Assembly: GCA_964517115.1 (NCBI GenBank)
Contig: CAZFBE010000002.1
Coordinates: forward strand, 6,862 to 70,861
Length of the DNA: 64,000 bases
Origin: an uncultured bacterium
GTDB lineage: Bacteria; UBP7; UBA6624
Direction: 5' to 3'
The notes beneath the pieces were generated by a model. The model did no database searches. It worked only from the letters and a program-made list of their open reading frames with translations, and was not told the origin of the DNA. The translations under genes and the position numbers were made by a program. Shown here in pieces: positions 1,209 to 38,495 of the stretch. The stretch's first letter is position 1. Every line of letters begins with the position of its first letter.

Positions 1209-1553
1209 TTAAGATTCGTATATTATTGAGCAGTCTTGTACCAACCCATCTATATCCCAATAGTCTCTTGCTGTTGGCGTCATCAAGTGAACAATTGTGT
1301 CTCCAAGATCCAGCAAGGACCATTCTGATTCAGACTCCGATCCTTCGGGGGTGATGTTGAAGCCATTATTTTTAAGCCATTGTTTTACATTTTCTCTTAG
1401 TGTTTTTAAGTGAGTTTTGTTTTGTGCAGTTGCAATGATGAAATTTTTTGTCCAGGTCATTTTATTTTCAACATTTATCAATTTAACTTCTTCAGCAAAT
1501 TCATCTAAAAGCATTAAGCTTATTTTTTTCGGATCTAGTTTTTTTTCAGTCAT
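1209..1553 (-). CDS. rsfS: Ribosomal silencing factor RsfS (Iojap/DUF143 family)
   Basis: 114 aa. The C-terminal GDTIVHLMTPTARDYWDIDGL matches the RsfS consensus (VVHVFxPEAREFYxLE). It lies directly downstream of nadD in the conserved obg-nadD-rsfS arrangement. Confidence 0.8.
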   Translation of the reverse strand: MTEKKLDPKKISLMLLDEFAEEVKLINVENKMTWTKNFIIATAQNKTHLKTLRENVKQWLKNNGFNITPEGSESESEWSLLDLGDTIVHLMTPTARDYWDIDGLVQDCSIIYES

Positions 1554-1556
1554 TTT

Positions 1557-2369
1557 TTAGTTGATGTTTTTTGATATCCATTGATTTAAATCATCCATTT
1601 CTGGAGACCAGTAAGGACCCATGAATTTCCCTGGGAGTATTTCTGTTAATGGGGATTCCCCTAGAGTTCTCATCCCTAGAACTAACACTTCTTCCATTTT
1701 TAAATTGGTTTCAATGTTTTCAAGAAATTTACTAATTACAGATATTTTTTTCAGAACATCTGATTTGTGAAATTTTTTAAGAATTGCATGAGCTAGTTTT
1801 TGTTGTCTTTGTATTCTTCCTATGTCACCTAAAGAATCGTTTCTGAATCTTGCATACAAAACTGAATCTTTTCCATTTAAGGTGTGAATACCTGATTCAA
1901 AGTTGATCTTTAAGCTTTGAGACGTGTCTTCGTATTTGAGTTCTTTTTCTATATGAACTCTTACTCCGCCGAGGTCATCGATTAATTTCTCTAGGTCTTT
2001 AAAATTGATTACAAGATATCTATCAACTGTAATATTTGCCAAAGAGTTTAAAGCGCCTCTTAACCCCGTTATGTTTCCGTTATTGTGCCAACTATGGTTT
2101 ATTCTGTTTGTTCCATCTTGAGTTTCAACAAGCGTATCTCTTGGTATTGAAAGTATATTTGGAGCACCTCCCGATTTAGGCAAAGCTGCAAGCAGTATCG
2201 TGTCGGGATTTATATCTTCTTTTGACTGGTCAAGACCAACTATAAGAACTGTTTCTGCTCTTGTTTGTTTGTATTTTTTGAAACCTTCTGCAAAACTTGA
2301 TAAAAGAATAAAAAATATCAAACTGAGAAGCATTCCCAAGAAAGTCAAATTTAGGTATTTTTGTATCAT
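1557..2369 (-). CDS. LytR-CpsA-Psr (LCP) family protein
   Basis: 270 aa with an N-terminal TM helix, then PNILSIPRDTLVETQDG, GLRGALNSLANITVDRYLVINF and GIHTLNGKDSVLYARFRND, typical of the LCP domain. Confidence 0.7.
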   Translation of the reverse strand: MIQKYLNLTFLGMLLSLIFFILLSSFAEGFKKYKQTRAETVLIVGLDQSKEDINPDTILLAALPKSGGAPNILSIPRDTLVETQDGTNRINHSWHNNGNITGLRGALNSLANITVDRYLVINFKDLEKLIDDLGGVRVHIEKELKYEDTSQSLKINFESGIHTLNGKDSVLYARFRNDSLGDIGRIQRQQKLAHAILKKFHKSDVLKKISVISKFLENIETNLKMEEVLVLGMRTLGESPLTEILPGKFMGPYWSPEMDDLNQWISKNIN

Positions 2370-2926
2370 TTATAAAGACCTCTTTTGAGAATCTTTTCTT
2401 CAACAAGTTTTGGTAATAGGTTTTTCACAGATTTTTTTTCCTTAATTTTCCTTCTTATTTCAGAAGATGAAATTTCCATTATTTTAGATTTGAGAAATGT
2501 TGTTTTATTGTTTTTTTCAGATTCCATTCTTCTTGCTACAACTATATTACAGTTGTCAATTAATTCACTGTAGTTTTTCCAATTTTTTATATCTTTTAAA
2601 TTGTCTTCTCCAACCAAAAGAGATATTTTTTTATTTTCATGATTTTTTTTAACCCATCTGACTTGGTCTATTGAGTAACAGGTTTCATTTTTCTTTTTTT
2701 CAAAATCAGAAATTATGACGTTTTTCAACTGAGCCGTTCCTGCTTTGCAGAGCTGAATTCTTTCTTCAAATGATGCATGAAAATTTTTCCCTACAGGAGA
2801 GATATATGTAGGAATGACATAAATGGGTTTATATTTTTCCTTAATACAAGCATTGATCAACTCTAAATGCGCATTATGAAAAGGGTCAAAGGAGCCTCCA
2901 AAAATTAAAGGATTTATCCTGGCCAT
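2366..2926 (-). CDS. nadD: Nicotinate-nucleotide adenylyltransferase
   Basis: 186 aa. It carries the FGGSFDPFHNAHL (GxFDPxHxxH) nucleotidyltransferase signature at the N-terminus. Confidence 0.85.
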   Translation of the reverse strand: MARINPLIFGGSFDPFHNAHLELINACIKEKYKPIYVIPTYISPVGKNFHASFEERIQLCKAGTAQLKNVIISDFEKKKNETCYSIDQVRWVKKNHENKKISLLVGEDNLKDIKNWKNYSELIDNCNIVVARRMESEKNNKTTFLKSKIMEISSSEIRRKIKEKKSVKNLLPKLVEEKILKRGLYK

Positions 2927-3753
2927 TCTTTTATGCTTTTGATATTTTCAGAATCTACAGGTATTGAGGAGTTTTTATATGTATAAATTTTGGATTTTTT
3001 TGGCAAGATTTCTTTTATTTTTAAAAAATCTTTGATTTTTGTAAACCTTCCAACAAAAACAATTTTTTTTGCATTTTTTGTCTGATGGAGCCAATTTTTT
3101 ACTTCATTCAGAGATGGTATTAGAAGTATTTTTTCATTAATTTTCATCTTATTAACTTTAACTCCTATTATTGGATAACTAGGCATTGTCTTGTCATACT
3201 TTCTTCCTGTTAGTTTTTCATGGATAGAAAGAGAGGAGTTTGTATTGGATATTATTGCAGTATCACAAGGAATAAAATAATTCATGCTGAGGCTTTTCTC
3301 TTCTCCAGGTTTTCCTTTCGTTATTTTTTTCGGCGATCTGTTTACGGAACTTGCAAAAGACCTATTTCCCCTTCCTCCACGGCCACCTTTTAGAGTGAAT
3401 ATTTCTCCTGGTTTTTCAAGTTTTTTAATTAAGTCTTTTTTCAAATCCCTTAACTCTGTTCCAGTTGGAACTTTTAGGATTAGTTCTTTTCCATTTTTTC
3501 CACTTTTGTTATTTTTTCCACCACTAAACCCATTTTCAGCTTTTATAGGTTTGTTTTGTTTGAATTTGTATAAATCAAATACAGAATCATCGGCAACGAT
3601 AGAAAGGTTTCCACCTCGCCCTCCGTTTCCTCCGTCAGGGCCCATACTTGCTCTAAATTTTTGTCTTAGGAAAGAAGATCTTCCATCACCGCCATTCCCA
3701 GCGACTAAATGAATTTCAGTCGAATCTATGAATTTGTTGAAGAATTTACTCAG
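2914..3753 (-). CDS. obg: Obg-family protein with a degenerate (inactive-looking) GTPase domain. The track ORF starts at ATG 3645, but the conserved Obg N-terminus continues upstream to a probable CTG start at 3753..3751.
   Basis: The track ORF begins [12 protein letters not shown], which is internal in Obg. Translating upstream in frame gives (I)[42 protein letters not shown], matching the Obg N-terminus MKFVDEVKIHVKAGDGGNG..REKFVPKGGPDGGDGG. An in-frame TAG lies at 3759..3757 and there is no ATG/GTG/TTG in between. Downstream, the block [14 protein letters not shown] is conserved, but the P-loop, switch I, DxxG and NKxD positions read [17 protein letters not shown] and VGRFTKIKD. Confidence 0.7.
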
Positions 3754-4000
3754 AATCTATTTGTGCTACTTTTTTATTGCCTCTTTTGTTTACATATTTG
3801 ACTATGCCATTGTTTAATGCAAACAAAGTGTAATCTTTCCCAATTCCAACATCTTTACCAGGGTGTATATTTTTGCCCCTTTGTCTAACTAAAACATTTC
3901 CAGTTGAAACTTTTTGACCATCTGAACATTTGACGCCAAGACGTTTTCCTGCAGTTGATCTTAAATTCTTAGTACTTCCCTGACCTGTTTTATGCGCCAT
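3746..4000 (-). CDS. rpmA: 50S ribosomal protein L27
   Basis: 84 aa. [24 protein letters not shown]...VRQRG is the canonical L27 N-terminus. Confidence 0.9.
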
Positions 4001-4001
4001 A

Positions 4002-4316
4002 TTAACCCTCTATTTTTAAAACTTTTAATTGGGTGTATTCTTGTCTGTGGCCAATAATTCTTTTGTAGTTCTTTTTTGCTTTGTATTTTTGGACCCTGAC
4101 TTTTTTATCTTTGATGTGAGCAATAACTTCGCAAGTAACCTTTGCTTTTTCTACTAGAGGTTTTCCAATCTTGACTTTATCCTTATTTATTGTCATTAGG
4201 ATCTCTTTGTAAACAATTTTTTTGCCTTTTTCTTCAGCAACCTTGTCAACAAATACGGTTTCCCCTGAGCAAACTAACATTTGTGTTCCTGATGCTTTAA
4301 TAATTGCCTTCTTCAT
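4002..4316 (-). CDS. rplU: 50S ribosomal protein L21
   Basis: 104 aa. Its N-terminus [46 protein letters not shown] and the rplU-rpmA-obg order match L21. Confidence 0.9.
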
Positions 4317-4460: not shown

Positions 4461-5897
4461 TTAATCCCCTCTCCAGAGAACAGCAATTAATGCTAGACAC
4501 ATTTCATCTAAAGAACTTGGTCCCAGCCTTACGTCAATAGGCTCATTAATATCGTCATATTCACTGAGTGCATAGGCAACGAAGGGGTTATTCATGGTGT
4601 TGTCGAAGGTGCATTTGAATTCAAGGGTATCTCCTCCCCTTATCCTTGGGACAAGCCATCTTCCACCAGGGTAACCAGTATCATAATAGTACATTCTTTG
4701 ATAATAGAAGTTGTAGTTTGGGGTTGCAATCAGGCATTCCTTTTTCTTTTGACCCTCTTCAGGGTTTTTTCGATGGAGGATAACTTCCATGTTGGTTCCT
4801 GTGTAGTGCATATGTGTCCCTATCCCAAAAATTGCTGTTTCGGGAAAGTTTTCTGGGAGTGTAAAGAGAATTGTTTCCTCATGACCCTTTACGTTTGCGG
4901 GAATTACAAAATCGGGATATCCTTTTTCATCATATGAACCTGGGACAAGGCCATTTGGAATTAGATTGTTGTCCTCATCAAGGCTATTGTCATGACTTGA
5001 GCCCCAAACCCAAACATAGGATTTCAGCAAAGGCTGTCTTTTTGTTATTTCAAGCTCAAGTATGCTTGAATCTTTTGGAGGTTCATCGTACTCTTGGTGA
5101 ATGTGGTAGTGTATTTGCATGATGATCTTAGATCCTTCAGGGATATGTATTCCAGATTCCTTTGGAGGGTCGTAAGGTGGGTATCCAGGATTCCATCCTC
5201 CTATCAAACTTACTTCAAAACCTACATCACCAAAGCAGTTGTAGTAACCTTTCTCGCCAGCTGTTTCAGATGATGCCCCCTTCTCGTCAAGCCATAATCC
5301 GACATGATGGACAACCTCGTTGTTTCCAGGAGTTATCCTGAAGTTTGTCATCCATGTGTCCCCCTCGATTTCTGGGTCAAGGACAAAGCACCTGAGCATG
5401 TCGTCTGTTCCTCCCCACTTTTCTCCAACAATCGTGTATTCGGGGATGCTCATTTTTATGTCCGACCTAAAGGGAACCTCTTTTTTCGTCTCTTTGTTTT
5501 TTTCAACCTTTTCACCCATGGGGAAATCAGAATCAATCCACTTTTCCAGAAGGAGTATCTCCCTTTGGGTCAGGGTGGGGTCATCTTTCCATCCAAGCTG
5601 GTTTGGTTCACATGTTTCCGTTTCTCCGGGACCCCATGGAGGCATCCTTTTTGCCTTGATTGCCCTCAGGGCACTCTTCGCCTTTTCTTTGACTTGGTCG
5701 TATGTTTCGAGAGAAAAGTCAGCAACATTCCCATCTGAATGGCATGAGATGCAGTGATCTGAGAATATTTCTGAGATGTGACCTTCCCATGTTACCTCTG
5801 ATTCAGCAAGCGTAAACTCTTCTTGGCTTGTTGCATTTTTTTCTTGACAGGAGTTGAAGATAAGAAAAAAAGAAAAAAGAAAGACTCTTTTCATCAT
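4461..5897 (-). CDS. Lipoprotein fusing a haem-c (CxxCH) domain to a PHM/DBH-like copper monooxygenase, copy A. The track ORF runs to 5921, but the likely start is M9 at 5897, which also removes the overlap with copy B.
   Basis: Signal plus lipobox-like MMKRVFLFSFFLIFNSC. A single haem-c motif CISCH is followed by RMPPWG. The copper-site ligands VVHHVGLW, MQIHYHIH, GTHMHYTG and SLDEMC align with the PHM/DBH CuH (HH...H) and CuM (HxH...M) sites. Confidence 0.7.
   Translation of the reverse strand: MMKRVFLFSFFLIFNSCQEKNATSQEEFTLAESEVTWEGHISEIFSDHCISCHSDGNVADFSLETYDQVKEKAKSALRAIKAKRMPPWGPGETETCEPNQLGWKDDPTLTQREILLLEKWIDSDFPMGEKVEKNKETKKEVPFRSDIKMSIPEYTIVGEKWGGTDDMLRCFVLDPEIEGDTWMTNFRITPGNNEVVHHVGLWLDEKGASSETAGEKGYYNCFGDVGFEVSLIGGWNPGYPPYDPPKESGIHIPEGSKIIMQIHYHIHQEYDEPPKDSSILELEITKRQPLLKSYVWVWGSSHDNSLDEDNNLIPNGLVPGSYDEKGYPDFVIPANVKGHEETILFTLPENFPETAIFGIGTHMHYTGTNMEVILHRKNPEEGQKKKECLIATPNYNFYYQRMYYYDTGYPGGRWLVPRIRGGDTLEFKCTFDNTMNNPFVAYALSEYDDINEPIDVRLGPSSLDEMCLALIAVLWRGD
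4476..5868. repeat. Direct tandem repeat, unit 1 (1393 bp, 100% identical to 5911..7303)
   Basis: The period is 1435 bp. Matching antisense ORFs (4698/6133, 4871/6306, 5304/6739, 5320/6755) and my line-by-line comparison show perfect identity. Flanks diverge at 4475/5910 and at 5869/7304. Confidence 0.9.
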
Positions 5898-5898
5898 T

Positions 5899-7335
5899 TT
5901 AGCTTTTATTGAGAACAGCAATTAATGCTAGACACATTTCATCTAAAGAACTTGGTCCCAGCCTTACGTCAATAGGCTCATTAATATCGTCATATTCACT
6001 GAGTGCATAGGCAACGAAGGGGTTATTCATGGTGTTGTCGAAGGTGCATTTGAATTCAAGGGTATCTCCTCCCCTTATCCTTGGGACAAGCCATCTTCCA
6101 CCAGGGTAACCAGTATCATAATAGTACATTCTTTGATAATAGAAGTTGTAGTTTGGGGTTGCAATCAGGCATTCCTTTTTCTTTTGACCCTCTTCAGGGT
6201 TTTTTCGATGGAGGATAACTTCCATGTTGGTTCCTGTGTAGTGCATATGTGTCCCTATCCCAAAAATTGCTGTTTCGGGAAAGTTTTCTGGGAGTGTAAA
6301 GAGAATTGTTTCCTCATGACCCTTTACGTTTGCGGGAATTACAAAATCGGGATATCCTTTTTCATCATATGAACCTGGGACAAGGCCATTTGGAATTAGA
6401 TTGTTGTCCTCATCAAGGCTATTGTCATGACTTGAGCCCCAAACCCAAACATAGGATTTCAGCAAAGGCTGTCTTTTTGTTATTTCAAGCTCAAGTATGC
6501 TTGAATCTTTTGGAGGTTCATCGTACTCTTGGTGAATGTGGTAGTGTATTTGCATGATGATCTTAGATCCTTCAGGGATATGTATTCCAGATTCCTTTGG
6601 AGGGTCGTAAGGTGGGTATCCAGGATTCCATCCTCCTATCAAACTTACTTCAAAACCTACATCACCAAAGCAGTTGTAGTAACCTTTCTCGCCAGCTGTT
6701 TCAGATGATGCCCCCTTCTCGTCAAGCCATAATCCGACATGATGGACAACCTCGTTGTTTCCAGGAGTTATCCTGAAGTTTGTCATCCATGTGTCCCCCT
6801 CGATTTCTGGGTCAAGGACAAAGCACCTGAGCATGTCGTCTGTTCCTCCCCACTTTTCTCCAACAATCGTGTATTCGGGGATGCTCATTTTTATGTCCGA
6901 CCTAAAGGGAACCTCTTTTTTCGTCTCTTTGTTTTTTTCAACCTTTTCACCCATGGGGAAATCAGAATCAATCCACTTTTCCAGAAGGAGTATCTCCCTT
7001 TGGGTCAGGGTGGGGTCATCTTTCCATCCAAGCTGGTTTGGTTCACATGTTTCCGTTTCTCCGGGACCCCATGGAGGCATCCTTTTTGCCTTGATTGCCC
7101 TCAGGGCACTCTTCGCCTTTTCTTTGACTTGGTCGTATGTTTCGAGAGAAAAGTCAGCAACATTCCCATCTGAATGGCATGAGATGCAGTGATCTGAGAA
7201 TATTTCTGAGATGTGACCTTCCCATGTTACCTCTGATTCAGCAAGCGTAAACTCTTCTTGGCTTGTTGCATTTTTTTCTTGACAGGAGTTGAAAATAAGA
7301 AATAGGAAAATAAGAGTTATTTTTTTTATCTCCAT
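5899..7335 (-). CDS. Lipoprotein fusing a haem-c (CxxCH) domain to a PHM/DBH-like copper monooxygenase, copy B
   Basis: 478 aa. It is identical to copy A from ...FNSCQEK through ...ALIAVL. Only the signal peptide (MEIKKITLIFLFLIFNSC) and the last 3-4 residues differ. Confidence 0.7.
   Translation of the reverse strand: MEIKKITLIFLFLIFNSCQEKNATSQEEFTLAESEVTWEGHISEIFSDHCISCHSDGNVADFSLETYDQVKEKAKSALRAIKAKRMPPWGPGETETCEPNQLGWKDDPTLTQREILLLEKWIDSDFPMGEKVEKNKETKKEVPFRSDIKMSIPEYTIVGEKWGGTDDMLRCFVLDPEIEGDTWMTNFRITPGNNEVVHHVGLWLDEKGASSETAGEKGYYNCFGDVGFEVSLIGGWNPGYPPYDPPKESGIHIPEGSKIIMQIHYHIHQEYDEPPKDSSILELEITKRQPLLKSYVWVWGSSHDNSLDEDNNLIPNGLVPGSYDEKGYPDFVIPANVKGHEETILFTLPENFPETAIFGIGTHMHYTGTNMEVILHRKNPEEGQKKKECLIATPNYNFYYQRMYYYDTGYPGGRWLVPRIRGGDTLEFKCTFDNTMNNPFVAYALSEYDDINEPIDVRLGPSSLDEMCLALIAVLNKS
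5911..7303. repeat. Direct tandem repeat, unit 2
   Basis: Same evidence as unit 1. Confidence 0.9.
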
Positions 7336-9284
7336 GTTTCTATCTCCTCTGCCATGGCTTCAATTCTGTCTCTTAATGCTGCAGCCAACTCGAATTCAAG
7401 ATTATCTGCATGTAAAAGCATTTCTTTTTCCATTTTTTGAACAAGTTTCATACCTTTGCTGTAATCTTTTGAACTCATTGATTCTTCTTCTCCAATCAAA
7501 AACAATTTACTCATTTTTATAGATTTTTTTATACTTTTAGGTTTCTTATTATTCTTTTTATTATATTCTTTCTGAATTTCTCTTCTTCTTGAGGTTTCTC
7601 CTATAGCTTCACTCATTGAAGGGCTTATTGAATCAGCATAAAGAACAACCTTTCCATTTAAATGCCTTGATGCTCTTCCAATAATCTGTATTAGAGACTT
7701 TGTGCTTCTTAAAAAACCTTGTTTATCTGCATCTAATATTGCAATAGTTGAAACTTCTGGGAGGTCCAAGCCTTCTCTTAGGAGGTTGACTCCAACCAAG
7801 CAATCAATTTTTCCAGATCTCAATTGGTGTATTATTTTTATTCTTTCAAGTGTTTTTACTTTTGCATGGAGCCATCCAGAATTTATATTTCTTTCTTGTA
7901 GAAATTCTGAAATTTCTTCTGACATTTTTTGAGTAAGGGCTATTATCAAAACCCTATCTCCCTTTGATTTTGCTTTTTTTATCTCCTTCAAAATGTGGTT
8001 GACCTGATTGCTTCTTGAGTGAATTTCTATTTTTGGATCAATTAGGTATGTAGGTCGAATAATTTGTTCAGTTATTTTTTCTGAATTTTCAATTTCCCAA
8101 GATCCTGGTGTTGCAGAGACAAAAAGAGTTTTATTTGTTTTTTTCATCAATTCATCAAAGTTTAATGGTCTATTGTCGTAGGCAGAAGGCAATCTAAAAC
8201 CATGGTCTATCAGGGATTTTTTTCTAGACCTATCTCCTTTTGGCATTCCTTTAAATTGAGGTATTGATACATGGCTTTCATCGATTATTGTGAGAAAGTC
8301 TTTTGGAAAGAAATCTACCAAGCACGTAGGAGGCTCACCTTTTTTCCTTTGTTGAAAATGTCTTGAGTAATTTTCAATACCTTTAACAGTTCCAAAAGTT
8401 TGTATTTGCTCAAGGTCATAAAGAGTTTTTTCTCTAATCCTTTCTGCTTCTATCATTTTTTCTTCTTTTTTGAAGGAACTCTCACGGATCTTCATTTCTT
8501 CTTTTATTTCGCAAAATATTTTTTCTCTATTTTTGTCATTCACTACATGCAATGTTGACGGAAATATGGTTACCTTCTCTTCAGAAGATATCTTTTCTCT
8601 CGAAATTGTATGAATTTTTTTTATCGATTCAATTTCATTTCCAAACCATTCAATGAGTATTGAGTTCTCCTCTTCAGGGGTTTTTATTTTCATTGTGTCA
8701 TTTTGTCTTTCAAATGTGCCATTGCTGATTGAGCCTGTTTCATAAACATAACCCATTGAAACCAATCTTTTTCCAATGTCTTTTGGCTCTATTAGGTCAC
8801 CCTTTTTTATTGGCAGGATTTTATTTAAATAATCTTTAGGTGCTCCTATTCCGTAAACACTTGAGACCGTTCCTATTATGACTGAATGTTTTGATGTAAT
8901 TAAGTTTTTTACTGCTTGATGCCTCAATCTTTCAATTTCTGTATTTATTTTTGCATCTTTTTCGATATATTTATTTTCATGAACTATGTAAGCTTCTGGT
9001 TGATAGTAGTCATAATAGGAAACAAAATATCCAACAGCATTATTCGGAAAAAAAGTTTTAAATTCTTCGTAAAGTTGTGCAGCGAGTGTTTTGTTATGTG
9101 TTAAAACCAATGTAGGCAAACCCAGTGATTGAATAACATTTGAAACCGTATAGGTTTTCCCACTTCCAGTAACTCCTAACAGTGTTTGTTTTTTTGAGCC
9201 TTCTTCAAAACCTTTTACTATGCTTTTGATTGCCTTTGGCTGATCTCCGGTTGGAGAAAATTGAGTTTTTAGATTAAAGTTCAC
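7326..9284 (-). CDS. uvrB: Excinuclease ABC subunit B
   Basis: 652 aa. N-terminal FSPTGDQPKAI..LLGVTGSGKTYT (Walker A) plus helicase motifs and a C-terminal UVR domain (ELAAALRDRIEAM). Confidence 0.9.
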   Translation of the reverse strand: MNFNLKTQFSPTGDQPKAIKSIVKGFEEGSKKQTLLGVTGSGKTYTVSNVIQSLGLPTLVLTHNKTLAAQLYEEFKTFFPNNAVGYFVSYYDYYQPEAYIVHENKYIEKDAKINTEIERLRHQAVKNLITSKHSVIIGTVSSVYGIGAPKDYLNKILPIKKGDLIEPKDIGKRLVSMGYVYETGSISNGTFERQNDTMKIKTPEEENSILIEWFGNEIESIKKIHTISREKISSEEKVTIFPSTLHVVNDKNREKIFCEIKEEMKIRESSFKKEEKMIEAERIREKTLYDLEQIQTFGTVKGIENYSRHFQQRKKGEPPTCLVDFFPKDFLTIIDESHVSIPQFKGMPKGDRSRKKSLIDHGFRLPSAYDNRPLNFDELMKKTNKTLFVSATPGSWEIENSEKITEQIIRPTYLIDPKIEIHSRSNQVNHILKEIKKAKSKGDRVLIIALTQKMSEEISEFLQERNINSGWLHAKVKTLERIKIIHQLRSGKIDCLVGVNLLREGLDLPEVSTIAILDADKQGFLRSTKSLIQIIGRASRHLNGKVVLYADSISPSMSEAIGETSRRREIQKEYNKKNNKKPKSIKKSIKMSKLFLIGEEESMSSKDYSKGMKLVQKMEKEMLLHADNLEFELAAALRDRIEAMAEEIETWR

Positions 9285-23789: not shown

Positions 23790-24230
23790 TTAGTCTATTT
23801 CAATTTTGTTGATTCTTTTTTGATGTCTCTCTCCTTCAAAGTCAGTTGAAAGAAATAATTTAACTAAATTTAGTGCATCATCCCTGTTTACCATTCTTTC
23901 TCCCAGGCATAAGACATTTGCGTCATTGTGTTTTCTTGTCATTATTACAGATTCTTTGTCATGAACTCGTGCGGCTCTTATTTTTTGATGTCTATTTGCA
24001 GCCATTGACATGCCTACCCCGCTCCCGCAGACTAATATTCCGTATTTTGCTTTTCCTTTCTTAATGCTTTCGCAAAGCTTATGTGCAAAATCTGGATAAT
24101 CAACAGATCCTTCCTTCGTTGGAGTTAGGTCTATAAATGAAAAATATTCATTTAATTTTTCAATAATGTATAAAGAAAGGTTTTTCCCAGCATGATCACA
24201 TGAGATAGCTATTTTTAAGTTCTCATCCAT
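23790..24230 (-). CDS. rpiB: Ribose-5-phosphate isomerase B
   Basis: 146 aa. KIAISCDHAGKNL, GILVCGSGVGMSMAANR and NDANVLCLGERMV are present. Confidence 0.85.
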   Translation of the reverse strand: MDENLKIAISCDHAGKNLSLYIIEKLNEYFSFIDLTPTKEGSVDYPDFAHKLCESIKKGKAKYGILVCGSGVGMSMAANRHQKIRAARVHDKESVIMTRKHNDANVLCLGERMVNRDDALNLVKLFLSTDFEGERHQKRINKIEID

Positions 24231-24982
24231 AATATTTCTTCTCCTTCAAATACGATATTTTCTTTTCTCAACCCTGAGGCTGATTTAAAGTTTTTTTCTA
24301 TAATCATTTCTTTATCTTTGGAACAAAGAATATAAAGATTTGGCAATAGAGACCCTTCGTTTTCCCAGAATCTTGACATTTCAGATAAAAATTCTTCATC
24401 ATGGTTATTCCTTTTGTACCCAAGTTTTTTTGATATTAAAGATAATTTTGTTTCTTTTGGGGTTCTGTATAGGTTTATGAAAATCCCATCAAAGGTAAAT
24501 GATTCGGCTATTTTTGAAATATTTTCATTCAGGACAAAACTTTTGTAATCTTCTGAAAACATTTGGTACCTTTGCAAGTTCCAATTTCCGATTTTTTCAT
24601 AAATGCCTTTCCAGTCTTTGTTAGTTCTTTCCCAATGACTTATAGCAAGGAGGAGGGAATTTAGCAATAGTCCTTTTGAAATGGTTCCATCTTCAAATTT
24701 TGCTAAGATTTTTTCAATGTTTTTGTAGGTTCCATCTTCTAGAACTGGTTTATTTAGCGATATTTCAGAAATTGTTTTTCCATTAAAATTTATTGGTTTT
24801 TTAGCTGTTAGAAAGAAGGTGTGGAGGTTGTAGGTCATCTTGTCTTTATTCGCAGAAAAAAGATTAATATTCGATTCTCTGAATTCGGAAAAAATTCTAC
24901 AGAAAGGATCTCCGCATACTGCAAGTCTTCTTATCCTTTTCCTCTGAAAAGTATCAATTATGTCAGATCCAAAAAGATTCAT
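24215..24982 (-). CDS. Hypothetical protein (255 aa), translationally linked to the HD-GYP gene
   Basis: Intact ORF with no recognisable motifs. It overlaps rpiB by 16 nt and abuts the HD-GYP gene. Confidence 0.4.
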   Translation of the reverse strand: MNLFGSDIIDTFQRKRIRRLAVCGDPFCRIFSEFRESNINLFSANKDKMTYNLHTFFLTAKKPINFNGKTISEISLNKPVLEDGTYKNIEKILAKFEDGTISKGLLLNSLLLAISHWERTNKDWKGIYEKIGNWNLQRYQMFSEDYKSFVLNENISKIAESFTFDGIFINLYRTPKETKLSLISKKLGYKRNNHDEEFLSEMSRFWENEGSLLPNLYILCSKDKEMIIEKNFKSASGLRKENIVFEGEEILWMRT

Positions 24983-24983
24983 T

Positions 24984-26183
24984 TTAGTTTTTCATAATCT
25001 CCATTAGTATATTTATCAAAGAAGGGTCAGCTATGTTTTTTAAATAGGTGTTAATTGATTCATTTATCTCAATTTTTCCCTTCCTCCTTCTGTGAGGTCT
25101 GTCATGCTGCAAGGCAACATAGGTGTCAGCAATTCTAAGTATCCTGCTTGAGAGAGGGATCTTGGAGCCTTTTAGGCCGTCTGGATAGCCCGAACCATCC
25201 CAGGCTTCATGTGAGCTTCTGATTATTTTAGAAACTTTTGGCAAGCTTGTGATTTCTTCTGTTGCTTTTTCGCCTATCAATGTATGGTTTTTGATTATTT
25301 CCGTATCTTCTTTTGAAAGTTTTTCTTTTTTCATATAGATTTTTTCATCTTGCGCAAGAATCCCAATGTCAGAAAGGAATGCTGATATTTTCATGTCAAA
25401 CAATTCCTCTTGACTCATCCCGATTGCTTCTCCTAGTTTGACAGCGAGAAGCGCAACTTTGCTAGGATGTGCTGCTAGGAATGGTATTTTTTCTCCTATC
25501 AAGTTGGAAAAAACAACTGATATTGCTAGAAGGTATGCTTGAGATTCGAATTCTGATAATTCTTGTCCTGAATCTTTAATTTCGTTTATTTTTTCACTTG
25601 CAGAATTTTGTATATTTTTCTTTTCTTTGAACTTTATAAATTTATCAACCAGTTGGGGTTGAAATCTTGTTTCTCTTGACTGCTTGAGTATTTTATTTAT
25701 TTCTTCTCCTGTTCTTTTTGGCCTGTAAGGCCTTTCTCTACTTAAGGTATCATTCAAATCACAAATAGAAAGGATTTGCTTGGCCGTTGTGAATTCGCCA
25801 AGCATTAGCTGATCCGGGTAGCCTGTCCCATTCCAGCTTTCATGATGATGTCTAATTAAATTTGCAACTTCTTTCATTGAAGGTATATCTTTTACTATCT
25901 TGTATCCAATTACCGAATGGCCTTCGATCTTTTTTCTTTCCAGTGGAAGGAGGGGGCCTTTTTTGTAAAGTATTGAATGTGGCAATGTGGTCTCTCCGAT
26001 GTCGTGTAAAAGGGCAGCATAATAAAGGTTTCTTTGTGTTTTTAGTGTTAGTCCAAACTCATCCGAGAAGCTGATTGAAAAATTTGCAACCCCTTGTGCA
26101 TGAGAACTTGTGTGTCCTTCGATTTCATCCAGTATCTTTGAAAGGCATTTTATTAATTGTGAAAGTATATTAAATCTTTTCAT
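24984..26183 (-). CDS. Tandem HD-GYP domain protein (c-di-GMP phosphodiesterase-type). The second domain is degenerate.
   Basis: Domain 1 reads AALLHDIGETT..IRHHHESWNGTGYPDQL (HD plus HHExxDGxGYP). Domain 2 reads SAFLSDIGIL..RSSHEAWDGSGYPDGL, with HD replaced by SD but GYP retained. Confidence 0.75.
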   Translation of the reverse strand: MKRFNILSQLIKCLSKILDEIEGHTSSHAQGVANFSISFSDEFGLTLKTQRNLYYAALLHDIGETTLPHSILYKKGPLLPLERKKIEGHSVIGYKIVKDIPSMKEVANLIRHHHESWNGTGYPDQLMLGEFTTAKQILSICDLNDTLSRERPYRPKRTGEEINKILKQSRETRFQPQLVDKFIKFKEKKNIQNSASEKINEIKDSGQELSEFESQAYLLAISVVFSNLIGEKIPFLAAHPSKVALLAVKLGEAIGMSQEELFDMKISAFLSDIGILAQDEKIYMKKEKLSKEDTEIIKNHTLIGEKATEEITSLPKVSKIIRSSHEAWDGSGYPDGLKGSKIPLSSRILRIADTYVALQHDRPHRRRKGKIEINESINTYLKNIADPSLINILMEIMKN

Positions 26184-27775
26184 TTTTTAACCCTTACACA
26201 GTTTTTCCCTTCAGATTTTGCAACATACAAACATTCATCAGCAACAGATATTATTTCATTTAGAGTATTTCCACTTTCAGGATATGTTGCAACTCCTATC
26301 GAGACTGTGAAGTTGATTTTTTCATCATCATTTACTGGAATTGATATATTTTGAATTTCTTTCAATAGTTTTTCAGCTGCTTTTTCTGTATTTTTGGAGT
26401 CAGACTCGAGTAAAAGGAGCATGAATTCTTCACCACCGTAGCGTCCTGACAAATCTCCTGCTCTTGATCTTTTTTGAATGTATTCGGCAAGGTTTTTCAA
26501 AACCTCATCACCAATTTGATGTCCATAAGTGTCATTAATTTCTTTGAAATTATCAACATCAAGCATCATTATGCTAAAGGTTCCTTCATATCTTTTTGAT
26601 CTTTCAAGTTCAATGTTTCCTAGCTCAAAAAATCTCCTTCTGTTGAGGAGGTTTGTTAAGCTGTCTGTTTGTGCTAGAAGTCTTAACTCTTCTTGTAAGT
26701 TTTTATTTTCCAGTATCCTTGAAAAATCTTTTGCTGCAACTTCGAAGAAGGTGTTGTCACGATTGTTAAATGATGATGAAGCTGATTTCATTAAAGCCAA
26801 AAATCCTACCCTTGAGTTTCTTTCAAAAAGATGTGTAATGATCATGCTTTTGGGTCGAATGTCTTCGACAACTGCCTTTGGCTCTTTCGGAAACTGGAAT
26901 AAACCTTCGGGAAAATTTGTTTTTGAAACTTTTGCTATATCTTCCCAATTAAAAGGACTTAAGGAATTGCGATTCTTTTTTTTCTTGAATATGTTCAAAA
27001 GAGCGTCTAGCAGCTCCGGGTCATGTGTATTTGATTGAGATATTAATGTTTCAGCTGTTTTTTTAGAAAATCTCAGAAAGTGATCTGGATTTTTTTCTAG
27101 TTTAATTTCTTTGTTCTTGTTGGAATAAAACATTATTGCGTAGTCGGCATCCAGTGCTTCATATAATTTTTCTAAAAATATTTCAGCTAAATCTTCTGGT
27201 GAATTTGTCATTTCTGAAATGTTTTTAAGCAAGGAGAGTTCAGCAACCTGCCTTTCAAAATGCTCTCTAAAAACAGAATGATATCTTTTTAAGGTTTCAT
27301 TAAATATTATTTCAAGTTTTTCTTTTTTAAGGTGAATGTCAAAAGCCTCTTTTTCCTCTTTGGAAAGTAAGTTTTTGAAAGTTTTTACACATTTCCAAAA
27401 TGCTTTGTCAATATTTGAAGGATCTATGTCTTTCTCAATCCAGTAATCAAAGTTTTTTTTAATTAGTATTGTTACCTGGTTATCCTTCATTGAGAGGATT
27501 GTTCTGTCAAAAGATGAAAAAACACCAAAAATAAAATCTCCCAATAACTGCCTGATGGATTCAATTGAGTTTTCAGGAAATAAATCTGAGAATTCTTTTG
27601 GAGGCTTGCTTGTAAACTCAATTAGATATTTTCTTAAAATCGTTCTAAGAAAATCATATTTATATTCAATATTTTTTTTCACTTGTAATAATTTTATAGG
27701 TTGTAATGCTCTTATTAGGATAGAATTGCTTTTATTCTGACGCGGGGTGGAGCAGTGGTAGCTTGTCGGGCTCAT
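26180..27775 (-). CDS. GGDEF diguanylate cyclase with a 350-aa N-terminal sensory region. The start is uncertain because the ATG at 27775 is the antisense of the tRNA-fMet anticodon.
   Basis: LTNLLNRRRFFE..DVDNFKEINDTYGHQIGDEVL..RYGGEEFMLLL (GGEEF active site). The first 35 nt of the ORF overlap tRNA-fMet on the other strand. Confidence 0.75.
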   Translation of the reverse strand: MSPTSYHCSTPRQNKSNSILIRALQPIKLLQVKKNIEYKYDFLRTILRKYLIEFTSKPPKEFSDLFPENSIESIRQLLGDFIFGVFSSFDRTILSMKDNQVTILIKKNFDYWIEKDIDPSNIDKAFWKCVKTFKNLLSKEEKEAFDIHLKKEKLEIIFNETLKRYHSVFREHFERQVAELSLLKNISEMTNSPEDLAEIFLEKLYEALDADYAIMFYSNKNKEIKLEKNPDHFLRFSKKTAETLISQSNTHDPELLDALLNIFKKKKNRNSLSPFNWEDIAKVSKTNFPEGLFQFPKEPKAVVEDIRPKSMIITHLFERNSRVGFLALMKSASSSFNNRDNTFFEVAAKDFSRILENKNLQEELRLLAQTDSLTNLLNRRRFFELGNIELERSKRYEGTFSIMMLDVDNFKEINDTYGHQIGDEVLKNLAEYIQKRSRAGDLSGRYGGEEFMLLLLESDSKNTEKAAEKLLKEIQNISIPVNDDEKINFTVSIGVATYPESGNTLNEIISVADECLYVAKSEGKNCVRVKK

Positions 27776-27815
27776 AACCCGAAGGTCGCAGGTTCGAATC
27801 CTGCCCCCGCACCCA
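27741..27815 (+). tRNA. Initiator tRNA-fMet, anticodon CAT
   Basis: CGCGGGGTGGAGCAGTGGTAGCTTGTCGGGCTCATAACCCGAAGGTCGCAGGTTCGAATCCTGCCCCCGCACCCA is near-identical in outline to E. coli tRNA-fMet. It has the C1xA72 mismatch and three G-C pairs in the anticodon stem. Confidence 0.8.
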
Positions 27816-27821
27816 GGTTTT

Positions 27822-27895
27822 GGCAGCGTAGCTCAGCTGGTTAGAGCGTCCGGCTCATACCCGGGAGGTCCTCGGTTCAAGTCCGAGCGCTGCTA
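27822..27895 (+). tRNA. tRNA with a CAT anticodon: elongator tRNA-Met or tRNA-Ile2 (lysidine)
   Basis: GGCAGCGTAGCTCAGCTGGTTAGAGCGTCCGGCTCATACCCGGGAGGTCCTCGGTTCAAGTCCGAGCGCTGCTA. The T-loop TTCAAGTCC resembles Ile2-type tRNAs and the gene lies immediately upstream of tilS. Identity cannot be settled by eye. Confidence 0.65.
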
Positions 27896-27909
27896 TTTGC
27901 CTAAAGAGT

Positions 27910-28851
27910 ATGGATAAGTTGTTAAAAAAAATCAAAGATAACATTCTTGAAAAAAAATTAATAAATAGCGGTGATAAGGTTTTAATTGCATGGTCTGGAG
28001 GGCCCGATTCAACAGCTTTGCTTTCTATCTTGAAGAATCTGAGAGATGATTTGGATTTTCACATAGAGGCTTTTTATTTCAATCATGATTCAAGAGAGGA
28101 TTCTTCCCAAGAACAAGCATTTGTTGAACTTTTTTCTGAAAAGCATTTAATTAAACTTCATATCTCAAAGTCAAGAAAAAAAACTATTGGCCAAGGTCCT
28201 GAGGACACATGGAGGAAAGAAAGGTATTCTGCAATTGAAAAAATTATTCAAAAAGACAAGTTTGACAAGGTTGCAACAGGTCACACCCTTGATGACAATT
28301 TGGAAACCTTGTTGATTAGGTTAGGTAGAGGTTCTGGACTAGAAGGCATCAAGGGCATCCCGCTTAGGAGGGATTACTTCATAAGGCCTCTTTTGAACGT
28401 GACTAGAGAATACTTGATGACCTATTTGGAAAAAAATGATCTTGAGTGGTACAAAGATCCTTCAAATGAGAATAACTTGATCAGAGCTTCTTTGAGGAAG
28501 GAGGTTATTCCAGCGTTGAAAAAAACCTGGGATAGGTATTGGCCAGCAGGTCCTGAAAAAAGTTTATCAATCTTGGCTGAGGAAAACCAGTCTTTAAACG
28601 TCCTTTCAAATGATTTGTTGAGAATTTATTTAAATGAGAAAGGTTTGAATAGGGAAGTTTTTAATCTTCCGCCAGCAATTTCGCTGAGAGTTATAAAAAA
28701 TTGGCTGTATTCAATTGGCGTAAATCCTCCTGGCGGAGCATTGGAAAGAGTTTTGAATGAAGGGAGAAATAAAAAGAAGACATTTATTGAAGGTCCTTCG
28801 TGGTTCAGAATCGAAATTACGAATGATAATATTGTTTATGTTGGAGAGTGA
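27910..28851 (+). CDS. tilS: tRNA(Ile)-lysidine synthetase (short form)
   Basis: 313 aa with the PP-loop VLIAWSGGPDSTAL. Confidence 0.85.
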   Translation: MDKLLKKIKDNILEKKLINSGDKVLIAWSGGPDSTALLSILKNLRDDLDFHIEAFYFNHDSREDSSQEQAFVELFSEKHLIKLHISKSRKKTIGQGPEDTWRKERYSAIEKIIQKDKFDKVATGHTLDDNLETLLIRLGRGSGLEGIKGIPLRRDYFIRPLLNVTREYLMTYLEKNDLEWYKDPSNENNLIRASLRKEVIPALKKTWDRYWPAGPEKSLSILAEENQSLNVLSNDLLRIYLNEKGLNREVFNLPPAISLRVIKNWLYSIGVNPPGGALERVLNEGRNKKKTFIEGPSWFRIEITNDNIVYVGE

Positions 28852-31171: not shown

Positions 31172-31642
31172 ATGAGTCAAGAACCTTATATGTTAGCTAA
31201 GTTGGATGATTTGCTTGGATGGTGCAGGAAGAATAGTTTATGGCCTATGACTTTTGGTCTTGCTTGTTGTGCTATCGAGATGATGTCAATTGGTGATACT
31301 AAATACGATGTTGACAGGATGGGTGTTGTTTTCAGGGCGAGTCCTAGACAGTCTGACGTGATGATTGTTTCTGGCACCGTCACTTACAAAATGGCTCCTT
31401 TGCTCAAGCGACTTTATGATCAGATGCCTGAGCCTAAATATGTTATTTCAATGGGTTCTTGTGCAAACTCTGGAGGAATTTACAAAGATGCTTATTCTGT
31501 TGTTAATGGTGTTGACCAGGTTGTTCCAGTAGATGTTTATGTTCCTGGTTGTCCACCTCGTCCAGAAGCCTTGATATATGCAATAACAAAATTACAAGAA
31601 AAAATAGAAAAGGAGAAACTAATTTCAGATCGTGTTGCATGA
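31172..31642 (+). CDS. nuoB: NADH-quinone oxidoreductase subunit B
   Basis: The N2 cluster ligands [15 protein letters not shown] and [11 protein letters not shown] are present. Confidence 0.9.
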
Positions 31643-32210
31643 TAAAAAATTATTTCTAAAAAAACTAGAAAGTTTTTTTGACGAATATGGGGAACTAAGA
31701 GGTCAACTAATTTTTATTGTTGACAGATCGAAGGTTCTTGAATGTTTGTCATTGTTAAAGAACGATAAAGATTTGGATTTTGATATGCTACATGATTTAA
31801 CTTGCAATCAAAAAAAGAAAGGTTTGGAGTTGATTTACCAAATGCACAGTACTAAAAATTCATATTGGATTACTATAAAATCTTTAATTCCTTCTGAATC
31901 TCTGATTGCACCTTCTGTAACACCTCTTTTCGCTGCTGCAGATTGGCATGAAAGAGAGGCTTTTGATATGTTTGGTTTAAAGTTTAATGATCATCCTGAC
32001 CTTAGGAGAATATTGCTTCCTGATGATTGGGAGGGCTTTCCTTTAAACAAAGAATATCCACTTGGTGGCTTCAAGGATATTAAACCTATTTGGGCTTATG
32101 AAGAGGCAGAGGATTTACAAAATTTACCAGAGAGAGATCTTTTAGATTCTCCAATAATGAAACCAGAAAAAAAGAAAAAGAAACTAAAGATTATTAAAGA
32201 AGATGAGTGA
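31632..32210 (+). CDS. nuoC: NADH-quinone oxidoreductase subunit C (Lys-rich C-terminal tail)
   Basis: [27 protein letters not shown]; the tail reads [16 protein letters not shown]. Confidence 0.85.
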
Positions 32211-33351
32211 AGCTAAAGATTTTTTGACAACAAAGACAGGTACTCTTTTGGAGCAGGAGTCAGAAGATAGATTTTGGCTCAACATGGGTCCGCAGCATCC
32301 TTCAACACATGGTGTTTTCAGAATTTTATTGGAAACAGAAGGAGAGGTGGTAAAGAATGTGAAGCCGATCATTGGATATCTACATCGAGGAGTTGAGAAG
32401 ATATCAGAAAACAGAGAGTGGATGGGAGCTCTTCCACTAACTGACAGGATGGATTATCTTGGTGCTATGTCAAACAATATGGCATTAACTCTCCCAGTCG
32501 AAAAATTGATGGAGATAGATGTTCCAAGAAGAGCACAATGGTTGAGGGTTTTGGCTCTAGAGACAAATAGGCTTGCTAGCCATTTGTTGTTTTATGGAAC
32601 ACTTGGTTTGGACCTTGGTGCACTTACTCCTTTCTTTTTTGCTTTTAGGCAAAGGGAAATTGCTCAGTATTTGTTGGAGCTTCTTTCTGGGCAGAGGATT
32701 ACTTTTAATTACATAAGATATGGCGGCGTTAGAGGAGATATCACACCGCAGATAGAAAGAGAATTTAGAAATTTTATTTCAGGATTCAAGCCAGCTTTTA
32801 AAGAGATGTGGGATCTTGTAGAGGGAAATGAAATATTTCGTTCAAGGGTTATTGGTGTGGGTAAATCTGATAGTGATTTGCTTATAAGATATGGTGTTAC
32901 CGGACCAATACTTAGAGCAACGGGTGTTAAGAGAGATTTGAGAAAAGATATCCCTTACGCTGCTTATGACGAATTTGATTTTAATGTTGTGACACATGAC
33001 AAAGGAGATACTTATTCGAGATGGATTTGTAGATATCATGAAATGGGAGAGTCTCTCAAGATAATTGAGCAATGTTTGGACGGCATGCCTGATGGGCCCT
33101 ATATTAAAAAAATGCCATTCTTTTTCAAGCCTCCACAAGGTGAAATTTATTCTGCAATAGATACTCCTCGCGGAGATTTGGGTGTTTATATTGTTTCTGA
33201 TGGAAGCAGATTTCCTTACAGGATAAGATACAGAGCTCCATCTTTTTGCAATCTTTCAGTTTTGCCAGAACTCTTGTACGGGCAGCTTATTGGGGATGTC
33301 ATAGCTATCCTTGGGTCATTTGATCCTGTATTTGGTGAGGTTGACAGATGA
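32203..33351 (+). CDS. nuoD: NADH-quinone oxidoreductase subunit D
   Basis: NMGPQHPSTHGVFR, YLHRGVEK and the C-terminal DRVDR-like end are present. Confidence 0.9.
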   Translation: MSEAKDFLTTKTGTLLEQESEDRFWLNMGPQHPSTHGVFRILLETEGEVVKNVKPIIGYLHRGVEKISENREWMGALPLTDRMDYLGAMSNNMALTLPVEKLMEIDVPRRAQWLRVLALETNRLASHLLFYGTLGLDLGALTPFFFAFRQREIAQYLLELLSGQRITFNYIRYGGVRGDITPQIEREFRNFISGFKPAFKEMWDLVEGNEIFRSRVIGVGKSDSDLLIRYGVTGPILRATGVKRDLRKDIPYAAYDEFDFNVVTHDKGDTYSRWICRYHEMGESLKIIEQCLDGMPDGPYIKKMPFFFKPPQGEIYSAIDTPRGDLGVYIVSDGSRFPYRIRYRAPSFCNLSVLPELLYGQLIGDVIAILGSFDPVFGEVDR

Positions 33352-34712
33352 AGATCTTGAATTGGAGAGTTAGAAATGTCCCTGTTGGGAAGATTACTGT
33401 TCTTCTTTTTGGGATTGCTTTTTTTCTCTTCATTGCCTGGCAAGCTTGGGCTTTTACAGATTACTGGTCATTTGAGCCTGTTTTTGATTCAATCAGAAAT
33501 GCTTTTTTAGATTTAAGGAAGAATTTTGGTGGACCTGGCCAGATGCCAATGGGTTTATACAACACCATAATCCTCACTTTAAAGTTGTTAGGTGTATTGG
33601 TCGTTTTGCTTTTAGTTGGAGCATATTCGACTTATGTGGAAAGAAAAATATTGGCTTTTATGCAAGATAGACTTGGTCCAACTCGCGTTGGTCCAAGAGG
33701 AATCCTTCAGCCAATTGCAGATGGTCTAAAACTACTTCAAAAAGAATGCATTGTTCCCTTGGGTGCTGATGCAAACTTTCATTATTTAGCACCTGTTATA
33801 TGTTTTATACCCGCACTTATGGGTGCAGTTCTTATCCCTTTTGGAAAAGGCATGATTCCTGTTGATCTAAACGTTGGGATTCTTTATTTTTTTGCCTTAG
33901 GTGCATTTGGTGAGTTGGGTATATTTTTAGCTGCATGGGGCTCTAATAATAAGTATTCAGCAATTGCTGGATTCAGAGCTGTTGCACAATTGGTTAGTTA
34001 TGAAATTCCAATGGCTTTTGCAATAATGTCCGTTGTTCTTCTTTCTGGCAGTTTGAAGATTAGTGATATTATTAATGCTCAAGTTGATGGACTTACTGCA
34101 CATGGGGGTTTAGGTTTTCCCATCTGGTTTATAGTTCCTCAGTTTTTGGGTTTTCTCATTTTCTTTTTAAGCGCTGTTGCTGAAACAAACCGTACCCCTT
34201 TTGACCTTGCTGAGGCAGAGTCTGAATTGGTTAGTGGTTTTCATACAGAATATACAGGCTTAAGATGGGCTTTCTTCTTCCTTGCTGAATATGTAAATAT
34301 ATTTATTGGAGCTGCAATAATTGCCACAATGTATTTGGGTGGATATGCTGGACCAGAGCTTCCATTCTTGGGAATCACTCTTTCGTCTGTTTTCTGGTTC
34401 TGCTTCAAGGTCTTTTTGATTTTCTTCATTATTGTTTGGTTGCGTGGAACCCTCCCACGACTAAGGGTTGACCAGTTAATGATGACTTGCTGGAAACGAT
34501 TGATTCCCATCTCTATGGCAAACTTCTTACTTACGGGTATTTTTGTTTTTGCAAATACGGTAAGGCTGACTCCCCAATTATGGACAGTTCATTTGGAGAA
34601 TAGCGCTTACACATCGATTGCGGCCCTGGTTGGAATATTAGTGCTTATGTTTGGCTTGGCTTGGTATTTTGCAAGAGACTTGATGAAGCCCTTAAAGGAG
34701 AGAGAAACATGA
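33348..34712 (+). CDS. nuoH: NADH-quinone oxidoreductase subunit H. It has a roughly 60-aa N-terminal extension relative to typical NuoH if the ATGA-coupled start is used.
   Basis: YVERKILAFMQDRLGPTRVGPRGILQPIADGLKL and the conserved TM topology are present. Confidence 0.85.
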   Translation: MKILNWRVRNVPVGKITVLLFGIAFFLFIAWQAWAFTDYWSFEPVFDSIRNAFLDLRKNFGGPGQMPMGLYNTIILTLKLLGVLVVLLLVGAYSTYVERKILAFMQDRLGPTRVGPRGILQPIADGLKLLQKECIVPLGADANFHYLAPVICFIPALMGAVLIPFGKGMIPVDLNVGILYFFALGAFGELGIFLAAWGSNNKYSAIAGFRAVAQLVSYEIPMAFAIMSVVLLSGSLKISDIINAQVDGLTAHGGLGFPIWFIVPQFLGFLIFFLSAVAETNRTPFDLAEAESELVSGFHTEYTGLRWAFFFLAEYVNIFIGAAIIATMYLGGYAGPELPFLGITLSSVFWFCFKVFLIFFIIVWLRGTLPRLRVDQLMMTCWKRLIPISMANFLLTGIFVFANTVRLTPQLWTVHLENSAYTSIAALVGILVLMFGLAWYFARDLMKPLKERET

Positions 34713-38483: not shown

Positions 38484-38495
38484 AGGAGAAAGATT

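Follow-up and report, generated by a model that had tools for sequence, protein, structure and literature searches.

Can a bacterium keep obg at its canonical place on the chromosome and discard the nucleotide switch that makes the encoded protein a GTPase? This question is raised by a gene in a 64,000-nucleotide stretch of DNA from an uncultured bacterium (GTDB lineage Bacteria; UBP7; UBA6624; GenBank assembly GCA_964517115.1, contig CAZFBE010000002.1, positions 6,862 to 70,861 of the forward strand), hereafter called the window. Obg, one of the few GTPases found in almost every bacterium, has proved essential in every case tested and is regarded as a drug target; which of its activities accounts for this essentiality is debated. 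The window gene follows rplU and rpmA on the minus strand and encodes a complete N-terminal Obg fold, joined to a domain in which the guanine nucleotide-binding motifs of the G domain are all replaced (Table 1). An earlier sequence-only reading had described it as an obg orthologue whose motif-less G domain is maintained by selection and is not decaying. Our analysis supported this core, and the details of the motif mapping were corrected.

The genomic position of the gene agrees with the canonical obg locus. On the minus strand, the order is rplU–rpmA–obg orthologue–nadD–LCP–rsfS, and successive genes overlap or are separated by gaps of 1–3 nt; the order expected for obg, as proposed earlier, was thereby confirmed, with an LCP-family gene additionally lying between nadD and rsfS. 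The terminator scan of the window identified no minus-strand terminator-like site inside the operon, and the promoter and terminator scans yielded a number of sites not above that in shuffled sequence. Two loci carrying canonical obg genes served for comparison, one arranged as rplU–rpmA–obg–proB–proA–nadD–rsfS (L015) and the other as rplU–rpmA–obg–proB (L019), and the window gene shares with them the location downstream of rplU–rpmA by which positional orthologues in the Obg family are recognized. The minus-strand open reading frame (ORF) extends from an in-frame TAG at 3757–3759 to the TAA at 2914–2916, a span of 279–280 codons. Since nadD starts 13 nt before the stop codon of this frame, there is no space for the missing C-terminus. 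The window gene is a positional, vertically inherited obg orthologue.

We next consider what the protein has retained. Pfam GTP1_OBG (PF01018) matched residues 10–158 over profile positions 1–151 of 155 (E = 3.7e-44), so that the fold is complete and the glycine-rich N-domain described earlier was recovered over nearly the full profile. In the AlphaFold2 (AF2) model, the predicted local distance difference test (pLDDT) score was 91–97 in the Obg fold and exceeded 90 across most of the domain, and identity to the nearest canonical proteins in this part was 46–47%. The N-terminal domain of E. coli ObgE enters the peptidyl-transferase center of the 50S subunit, where it mimics the tRNA acceptor arm and contacts H89–H93 and the A loop; 50S binding is almost abolished by the K27E/K31E and R136G/R139G substitutions in loops 1 and 3 (PMC4028186). 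Alignment to the ObgE chain 4csu_9 showed that the equivalents of three of these basic residues are kept (K27 as K32, R136 as R139 and R139 as K142), and that K31 corresponds to S36 in the window protein and to Lys in a high-GC relative. An ObgE construct without its C-terminal domain retains anti-association activity, and the N-terminal domain has been argued to be ObgE's principal center of activity (PMC4028186).

Downstream of the Obg fold, the replacement of all nucleotide-binding motifs that the earlier reading had claimed was borne out. The motif positions were taken from an alignment of clade members with canonical Obgs (A1), in which G1 and G3 fall on the ISNTNSSLS and LIPS segments named in that reading. 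It had further assigned the NKxD region to VGRFTKIKD; in the alignment, NKxD pairs with KNSS instead. A six-frame search of positions 2800–3800 returned no GxxxxGK[ST] and no [NT]KxD. A hidden Markov model (HMM) of the canonical Obg G domain, run unfiltered (--max) over the window and 12 related loci, gave a best E-value of 0.24 and revealed no out-of-frame remnant; on the C-terminal domain itself, the same model gave E-values of 2.5–5.5. PF01018 was the sole Pfam match of the window protein, with no MMR_HSR1 (PF01926) domain. Similarly, the NCBIfam ObgE equivalogs matched over profile positions 1–169 of 327 only and scored below their cutoffs (NF008956, 160.9 versus 300 bits; TIGR02729, 158.4 versus 280.25). 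The window gene thus has the Obg fold and synteny of an Obg GTPase, and it lacks a G domain with the G1–G4 motifs and scores below the curated cutoff. As for length, a shortfall of about 150 aa, as stated earlier, holds against Bacillus subtilis Obg, which has an extra C-terminal domain, but not against the nearest canonical Obgs (~338 aa), for which it amounts to ~60 aa.

Is the C-terminal domain nevertheless a former G domain? Sequence alignments to Protein Data Bank (PDB) entries (ObgE, Thermus thermophilus Obg, B. subtilis Obg and human MTG2) end near residue 170–197. Comparison of the putative remnant with the canonical G domain by hhalign gave an E-value of 0.01 in the expected register, covering beta2/3, switch II, the FLRH helix and beta4. 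A profile of the remnant searched against 1.84 billion representative proteins recovered no canonical Obg or other canonical GTPase, and searches of the remnant against Pfam and PDB sequences returned nothing credible. Other origins of the C-terminal domain were rejected for this last reason. The remnant is colinear with the G domain once three gaps are allowed (8 aa at the P-loop and helix 1, 8 aa at switch II and ~14 aa after beta4), so the residue-for-residue alignment claimed from the sequence alone did not hold. Its predicted order of elements is beta1–alpha1–beta2–beta3–alpha2–beta4–alpha3–beta5, without alpha4, beta6, alpha5 and G5. The AF2 prediction made with canonical Obgs in the alignment had a two-domain layout overall; because those Obgs were included, this model is not independent evidence of G-domain descent. 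A model from seven clade sequences alone reached a pLDDT of 40.6, usable for element order only, and gave the same order. In addition, Obg positions outside the nucleotide-binding site are kept in the remnant, namely D164, P191, G197, P213, L222 and H223/224. Descent from a G domain is therefore suggested by the retention of these positions and by the continuity of the remnant with the Obg fold in a positional orthologue.

Loss of motifs together with the absence of a canonical start codon could also mean that the gene is a decaying pseudogene, or that the sequence contains a sequencing, assembly or frameshift artefact. Comparison with relatives makes either hardly tenable. The same architecture and synteny were found in at least 11 independent marine contigs at 62–100% identity, and the frame is open and colinear in all relatives. 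Six clusters at 90% identity were present in the database (94–64% identity to the window protein), each with PF01018 only; these clusters are represented by dozens of contigs in assemblies of NCBI, JGI, ENA, Logan and Tara, 21 for the closest cluster alone. The gene was recovered independently in many assemblies, which differ in sample and pipeline. Four loci lie in GTDB species genomes and six, all of the same marine clade, in JGI metagenomes, and a word-index search with the C-terminal domain alignment returned two fragments only. The most divergent marine member (L005) keeps the whole order rplU–rpmA–obg–nadD–LCP–rsfS. Furthermore, the remnant profile detected two distant high-GC relatives (P0261 and P0262), the second of which lies between rpmA and nadD at locus L007 and is 37% identical to the window protein overall and 26–29% identical in the remnant. 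It likewise lacks any G motif. The motifs are thus missing in every clade member, down to 37% identity, contrary to the possibility, raised with the sequence-only reading, that relatives might carry normal ones.

Substitution patterns lead to the same result. Ratios of nonsynonymous to synonymous substitution (dN/dS), estimated by the Nei–Gojobori method among five marine orthologues, were 0.10–0.27 overall, 0.06–0.24 in the Obg fold and 0.10–0.31 in the remnant domain; for the first 36 codons, close pairs gave 0.03–0.14 at proportions of synonymous differences (pS) of 0.22–0.35. These values are far below 1 in all three segments and comparable to those of nadD and coaE; for the same genome pairs, the neighbors rplU, rpmA, nadD, LCP, rsfS, uvrB and coaE ranged from 0.02 to 0.24. 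With the local base composition, the chance of 121 codons staying open is ~2.5e-5. Rescue of the GTPase motifs by a frameshift was rejected by tblastn of full-length Obg as well as by the six-frame motif search and the G-domain HMM, neither of which had revealed a G-motif remnant in any frame. The gene is under purifying selection and reflects neither error nor decay, as had been argued from its open frame and as the dN/dS comparison with relatives suggested at that stage now shows. Motif loss and retention under selection, two of the traits that define a class I pseudoGTPase, were found.

The reading frame itself has an unusual beginning, which the sequence-only reading overlooked. Ahead of the first 36 codons, which are conserved, there is no ATG, GTG or TTG, and the earliest canonical start is the internal ATG that encodes Met37. 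In 11 of 11 low-GC loci having this region, the frame opens with TAG-(ATT or ACT)-CTG-AGT-AA(A/T). The CTG is kept in all 11 and has a positional counterpart in the high-GC locus L007; the preceding ATT reads ACT in L002 and L010, so that of the two codons CTG alone is universal. In the sequence CTGAGTAA, the CTG shares nucleotides with the stop codon of rpmA, an arrangement suggestive of translational coupling, and we infer initiation at this weak near-cognate codon, coupled to rpmA termination. NCBI annotation of two relatives starts from ATT and gives a 279-aa 'hypothetical protein' beginning with MLSKF..., and most gene callers give 243 aa from the internal ATG.

If only this 243-aa product were made, its Obg fold would be without the first strand and the first of the glycine-rich helices. 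The internal ATG is the first canonical start, Met37 is invariant in the clade and six of the database clusters are annotated in this way, but we regard the shorter product as quite improbable given what the upstream codons encode. These 36 codons are in frame and stop-free in 11 of 11 low-GC loci with the region and in L007. Their translation is that of the N-terminus of canonical Obg (FIDxxxxxxxAGxGGDGxxSFLRQK), the AF2 model includes them in the fold at pLDDT values as high as 97, and their low dN/dS was obtained at the pS given above. As a separate observation, the change that creates Met37 (PKGGPDGG to ASMGPDGG) could be a structural alteration at the tip that contacts the peptidyl-transferase center, or it could provide a second initiation site.

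The remnant has invariant motifs of its own, IPCxT, HExLTxR, ExILLxP, LH and a terminal WP, all of which also occur in P0262. These invite the explanation that the domain was neofunctionalized and acquired a new ligand-binding or catalytic role through invariant Cys, His and Glu residues in IPCxT, HExLTxR, ExILLxP and LH (among the invariants are Cys163, His178, Glu179, Glu207 and His223); the protein would then be a two-domain factor and more than a scaffolded Obg fold. Their invariance between lineages that are only 26–29% identical in the remnant fits such a role, as does the very high conservation of these blocks within the marine clade. Against it, no similarity of the remnant to a Pfam family or to a PDB sequence was detected, and several of the invariants coincide with the canonical Obg positions listed above (D164 to H223/224), which suggests retained structural or interdomain roles. 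We consider neofunctionalization unlikely.

On balance, we hold it rather probable that the window protein works as an Obg-fold factor without need of nucleotides and has kept the ability to dock at the peptidyl-transferase center of the 50S subunit. Cryo-EM has presented YihA, EngA and ObgE as successive placeholders in 50S maturation (bioRxiv 10.64898/2026.02.15.706057). In the mechanism that we propose, the Obg fold would mediate binding of the pseudo-Obg to free 50S or late pre-50S particles, on which the protein would function passively, as a placeholder and anti-association factor. No switch between GTP, GDP and (p)ppGpp would govern its binding and release; these would depend on how much of the protein is present, on rRNA maturation and on factors that compete with it. 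The remnant domain would scaffold the Obg fold and might also offer a docking surface. Expression would be low and tied to L21/L27 synthesis, with initiation at the weak CTG that overlaps the stop codon of rpmA. That the protein binds ribosomes, does so independently of nucleotides, acts as a placeholder and starts at the CTG is what we infer from the sequence comparisons.

Several points weigh against this interpretation. Loop 1 of the Obg fold is changed from PKGG to ASMG. The homology of the remnant to a G domain leans on colinearity, position and a model informed by canonical Obgs, with weak sequence statistics, and loss of guanine nucleotide binding is predicted from the missing motifs. 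The known functions of Obg in model organisms need GTP binding and hydrolysis (bioRxiv 10.64898/2026.05.13.724932), and because of this dependence a GTPase-independent essential role of Obg has no precedent. Finally, the function would have to be read differently if the genome had another, intact obg outside this locus.

Does the lineage have such a second copy? Duplication or horizontal transfer could have supplied an intact obg elsewhere, freeing the copy at the native locus to lose its GTPase and to persist as a specialized regulator that works without nucleotides, such as a factor of the hibernation or 50S anti-association type in competition with the real Obg. This scenario accords with the essentiality of GTP binding for Obg function wherever tested and with the presence of obgE in >99% of non-CPR genomes, CPR being the candidate phyla radiation (PMC12641178); the kept ribosome-binding residues would suit a competitor, and a weak CTG start fits a low-level protein. 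Against it, neither the 64-kb window nor ~110 kb of related sequence (12 loci) yielded an Obg-type G domain, a result that is not decisive. Nor is it decisive that five AT-rich canonical Obgs among the top 120 matches all come from assemblies of other organisms. Obg paralogues are uncommon in bacteria, which also counts against a second copy. We therefore regard this scenario as possible, if on the doubtful side. The five AT-rich Obgs, three of which adjoin their own rpmA and two of these also rplU, were rejected as the clade's second copy because they lie on contigs of other organisms. Alternatively, the lineage may be without any functional Obg GTPase, its Obg function reduced to a nucleotide-independent Obg-fold protein; the sequence data make this a serious prospect, which we put forward tentatively and would not yet call probable.

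If the window gene is the sole Obg of its genome, then sensing of GTP and ppGpp by Obg would not be universally required, even in a free-living bacterium outside the CPR, and the core role of Obg would reside in the N-terminal fold on the 50S peptidyl-transferase center. The locus represents a natural separation of functions, in which the Obg fold is kept by purifying selection and the nucleotide switch has been discarded, and the pseudo-Obg could be used as a reagent for studying how the Obg fold acts on the 50S subunit without a GTPase cycle. There are also consequences for annotation: pipelines label the product either as a truncated Obg or as a 'hypothetical protein' of 243 aa, and presence/absence surveys based on the N-terminal domain would score it as an intact obgE.

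The protein can be compared with several known systems. With canonical Obg/CgtA/ObgE (TIGR02729; PDB 1LNZ, 1UDX, 5M04, 4CSU and 7BL2), it has in common the Obg fold, the position after rplU–rpmA and before nadD/rsfS, the predicted two-domain layout and key basic residues, whereas it is without G1–G4, G5, the last strand and helix, the C-terminal OCT domain and a canonical start codon. Mitochondrial homologues of Obg (MTG2/GTPBP5 and GTPBP10; PDB 7ODT, 7O9K and 8PK0) are, by contrast, intact GTPases. Class I pseudoGTPases, which combine a G-domain fold with an absence of nucleotide binding and include CENP-M and the pG domains of p190RhoGAP, resemble it in having lost the motifs, in being kept under selection and in presumably acting as interaction scaffolds; their fold is derived from a G domain, as that of the window remnant may be. 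The N-terminal domain of AAGAB is another member of this class (PMC12490416). Known class I pseudoGTPases, however, are mostly eukaryotic and are not ribosome-assembly factors, and the domain in the window is also shortened by about a third. A literature search returned no paper combining 'Obg' and 'pseudoGTPase'.

Two further comparisons concern how a cell might manage without the Obg GTPase cycle. The class ABY1 of the CPR/Patescibacteria lacks obgE altogether (PMC12641178), so that ABY1 and the window lineage both appear to do without that cycle; in ABY1, the whole gene is lost from ultra-reduced genomes, whereas here the Obg fold is kept and the gene content is not CPR-like. RsfS, the product of another gene in this operon, is a small anti-association factor of late assembly that binds the 50S subunit independently of nucleotides and exemplifies the type of mechanism proposed for the pseudo-Obg, but its fold is unrelated and its binding site, uL14, is different.

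Table 1 Features of the obg-orthologue locus in the window. Motif rows give the residues of the window protein at the aligned positions.
Feature	Position	Strand	Details
Putative pseudo-GTPase Obg orthologue	2914..3753	(-)	279 codons counted from the conserved CTG, plus stop TAA 2914-2916
Probable non-canonical start region	3751..3756	(-)	CTG 3751-3753, ATT 3754-3756
Obg fold (glycine-rich protrusion and beta-barrel)	3283..3729	(-)	From PF01018, AF2 and the ObgE alignment
Internal ATG (Met37)	3643..3645	(-)	Replaces Gly of canonical loop 1 PKGGPDGG; invariant clade-wide, including the high-GC relatives
Predicted degenerate, truncated G-domain remnant	2917..3282	(-)	~Residues 158-279
G1 (P-loop) position	3226..3252	(-)	ISNTNSSLS instead of G(F/L)PNxGKST; followed by an 8-aa helix 1 deletion
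Switch I			Canonical Thr-Thr not conserved
G3 position (DxPG)	3112..3123	(-)	LIPS, only Pro kept; followed by an 8-aa switch II deletion
G4 position (NKxD)	2965..2976	(-)	KNSS; protein ends 16 residues on
rplU	4002-4316	(-)	Pfam L21p, E 4.7e-28
rpmA	3746-4000	(-)	Pfam L27, E 4e-31
nadD	2366-2926	(-)	ATG overlaps the stop of the obg orthologue
LCP-family gene	1557-2369	(-)	Between nadD and rsfS
rsfS	1209-1553	(-)	Downstream gene of the operon
tRNA-Ala			Next after rsfS in the listed order

The remaining content of the window bears on the identity of the organism. The window contains no rRNA genes. Its uvrB (7326–9284, minus strand) is 78–99% identical to clade relatives, and the best other match among 5.8 billion proteins reached 51%, which indicates a very isolated, deep-branching lineage. 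Relatives with a recorded source came from Tara Oceans planktonic size fractions. Among the genes are those for complex I, for PolA and FtsH, for enzymes related to peptidoglycan, for cyclic di-GMP (c-di-GMP) signaling proteins of the GGDEF and HD-GYP types and for a 4144-aa protein, and by this gene content the organism is free-living and neither CPR-like nor endosymbiotic. The 4144-aa protein is encoded by one ORF (44938–57372, plus strand) with Pfam matches to a PKD domain and, faintly, to the C-terminus of a cellulose-binding protein, and is probably a giant surface or adhesion protein.

Other observations stand apart from the obg locus. At 4461–7335 (minus strand), a gene is duplicated in tandem whose 478–486-aa product has a cytochrome-c-like motif and, as weak matches, Cu(II) monooxygenase-like domains; the period is 1435 bp, and 1383 bp are 100% identical between the copies. 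Since a related genome locus (L001) likewise carries two copies, at 88–89% identity to that of the window, the duplication is genuine and did not arise in assembly. Among canonical Obgs, the gene called at 2501–3805 of L021 (Logan SRR24015491 contig) does not yield its database protein under genetic code 11, suggesting an alternative genetic code; this is unrelated to the pseudo-Obg. Two ORFs of ~250 aa without a Pfam match lie at 24215–24982 (minus strand) and 41402–42151 (plus strand), the first adjoining the HD-GYP (24984–26183) and GGDEF (26180–27775) gene pair. The complex I operon (31172–40145, plus strand) has the order nuoB-C-D-H-I-J-K-L-M with no nuoE/F/G between D and H, corresponding to the 11-subunit type without the NADH dehydrogenase module. 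A class V fructose-1,6-bisphosphate aldolase/phosphatase (43635–44804, minus strand; PF01950, E = 2e-174) belongs to a type mostly known from archaea and deep-branching bacteria. Finally, two tRNA-Met(CAT) genes (27741–27896, plus strand) lie 5 nt apart, directly upstream of tilS (PP-loop family, 27910–28851) and ftsH.

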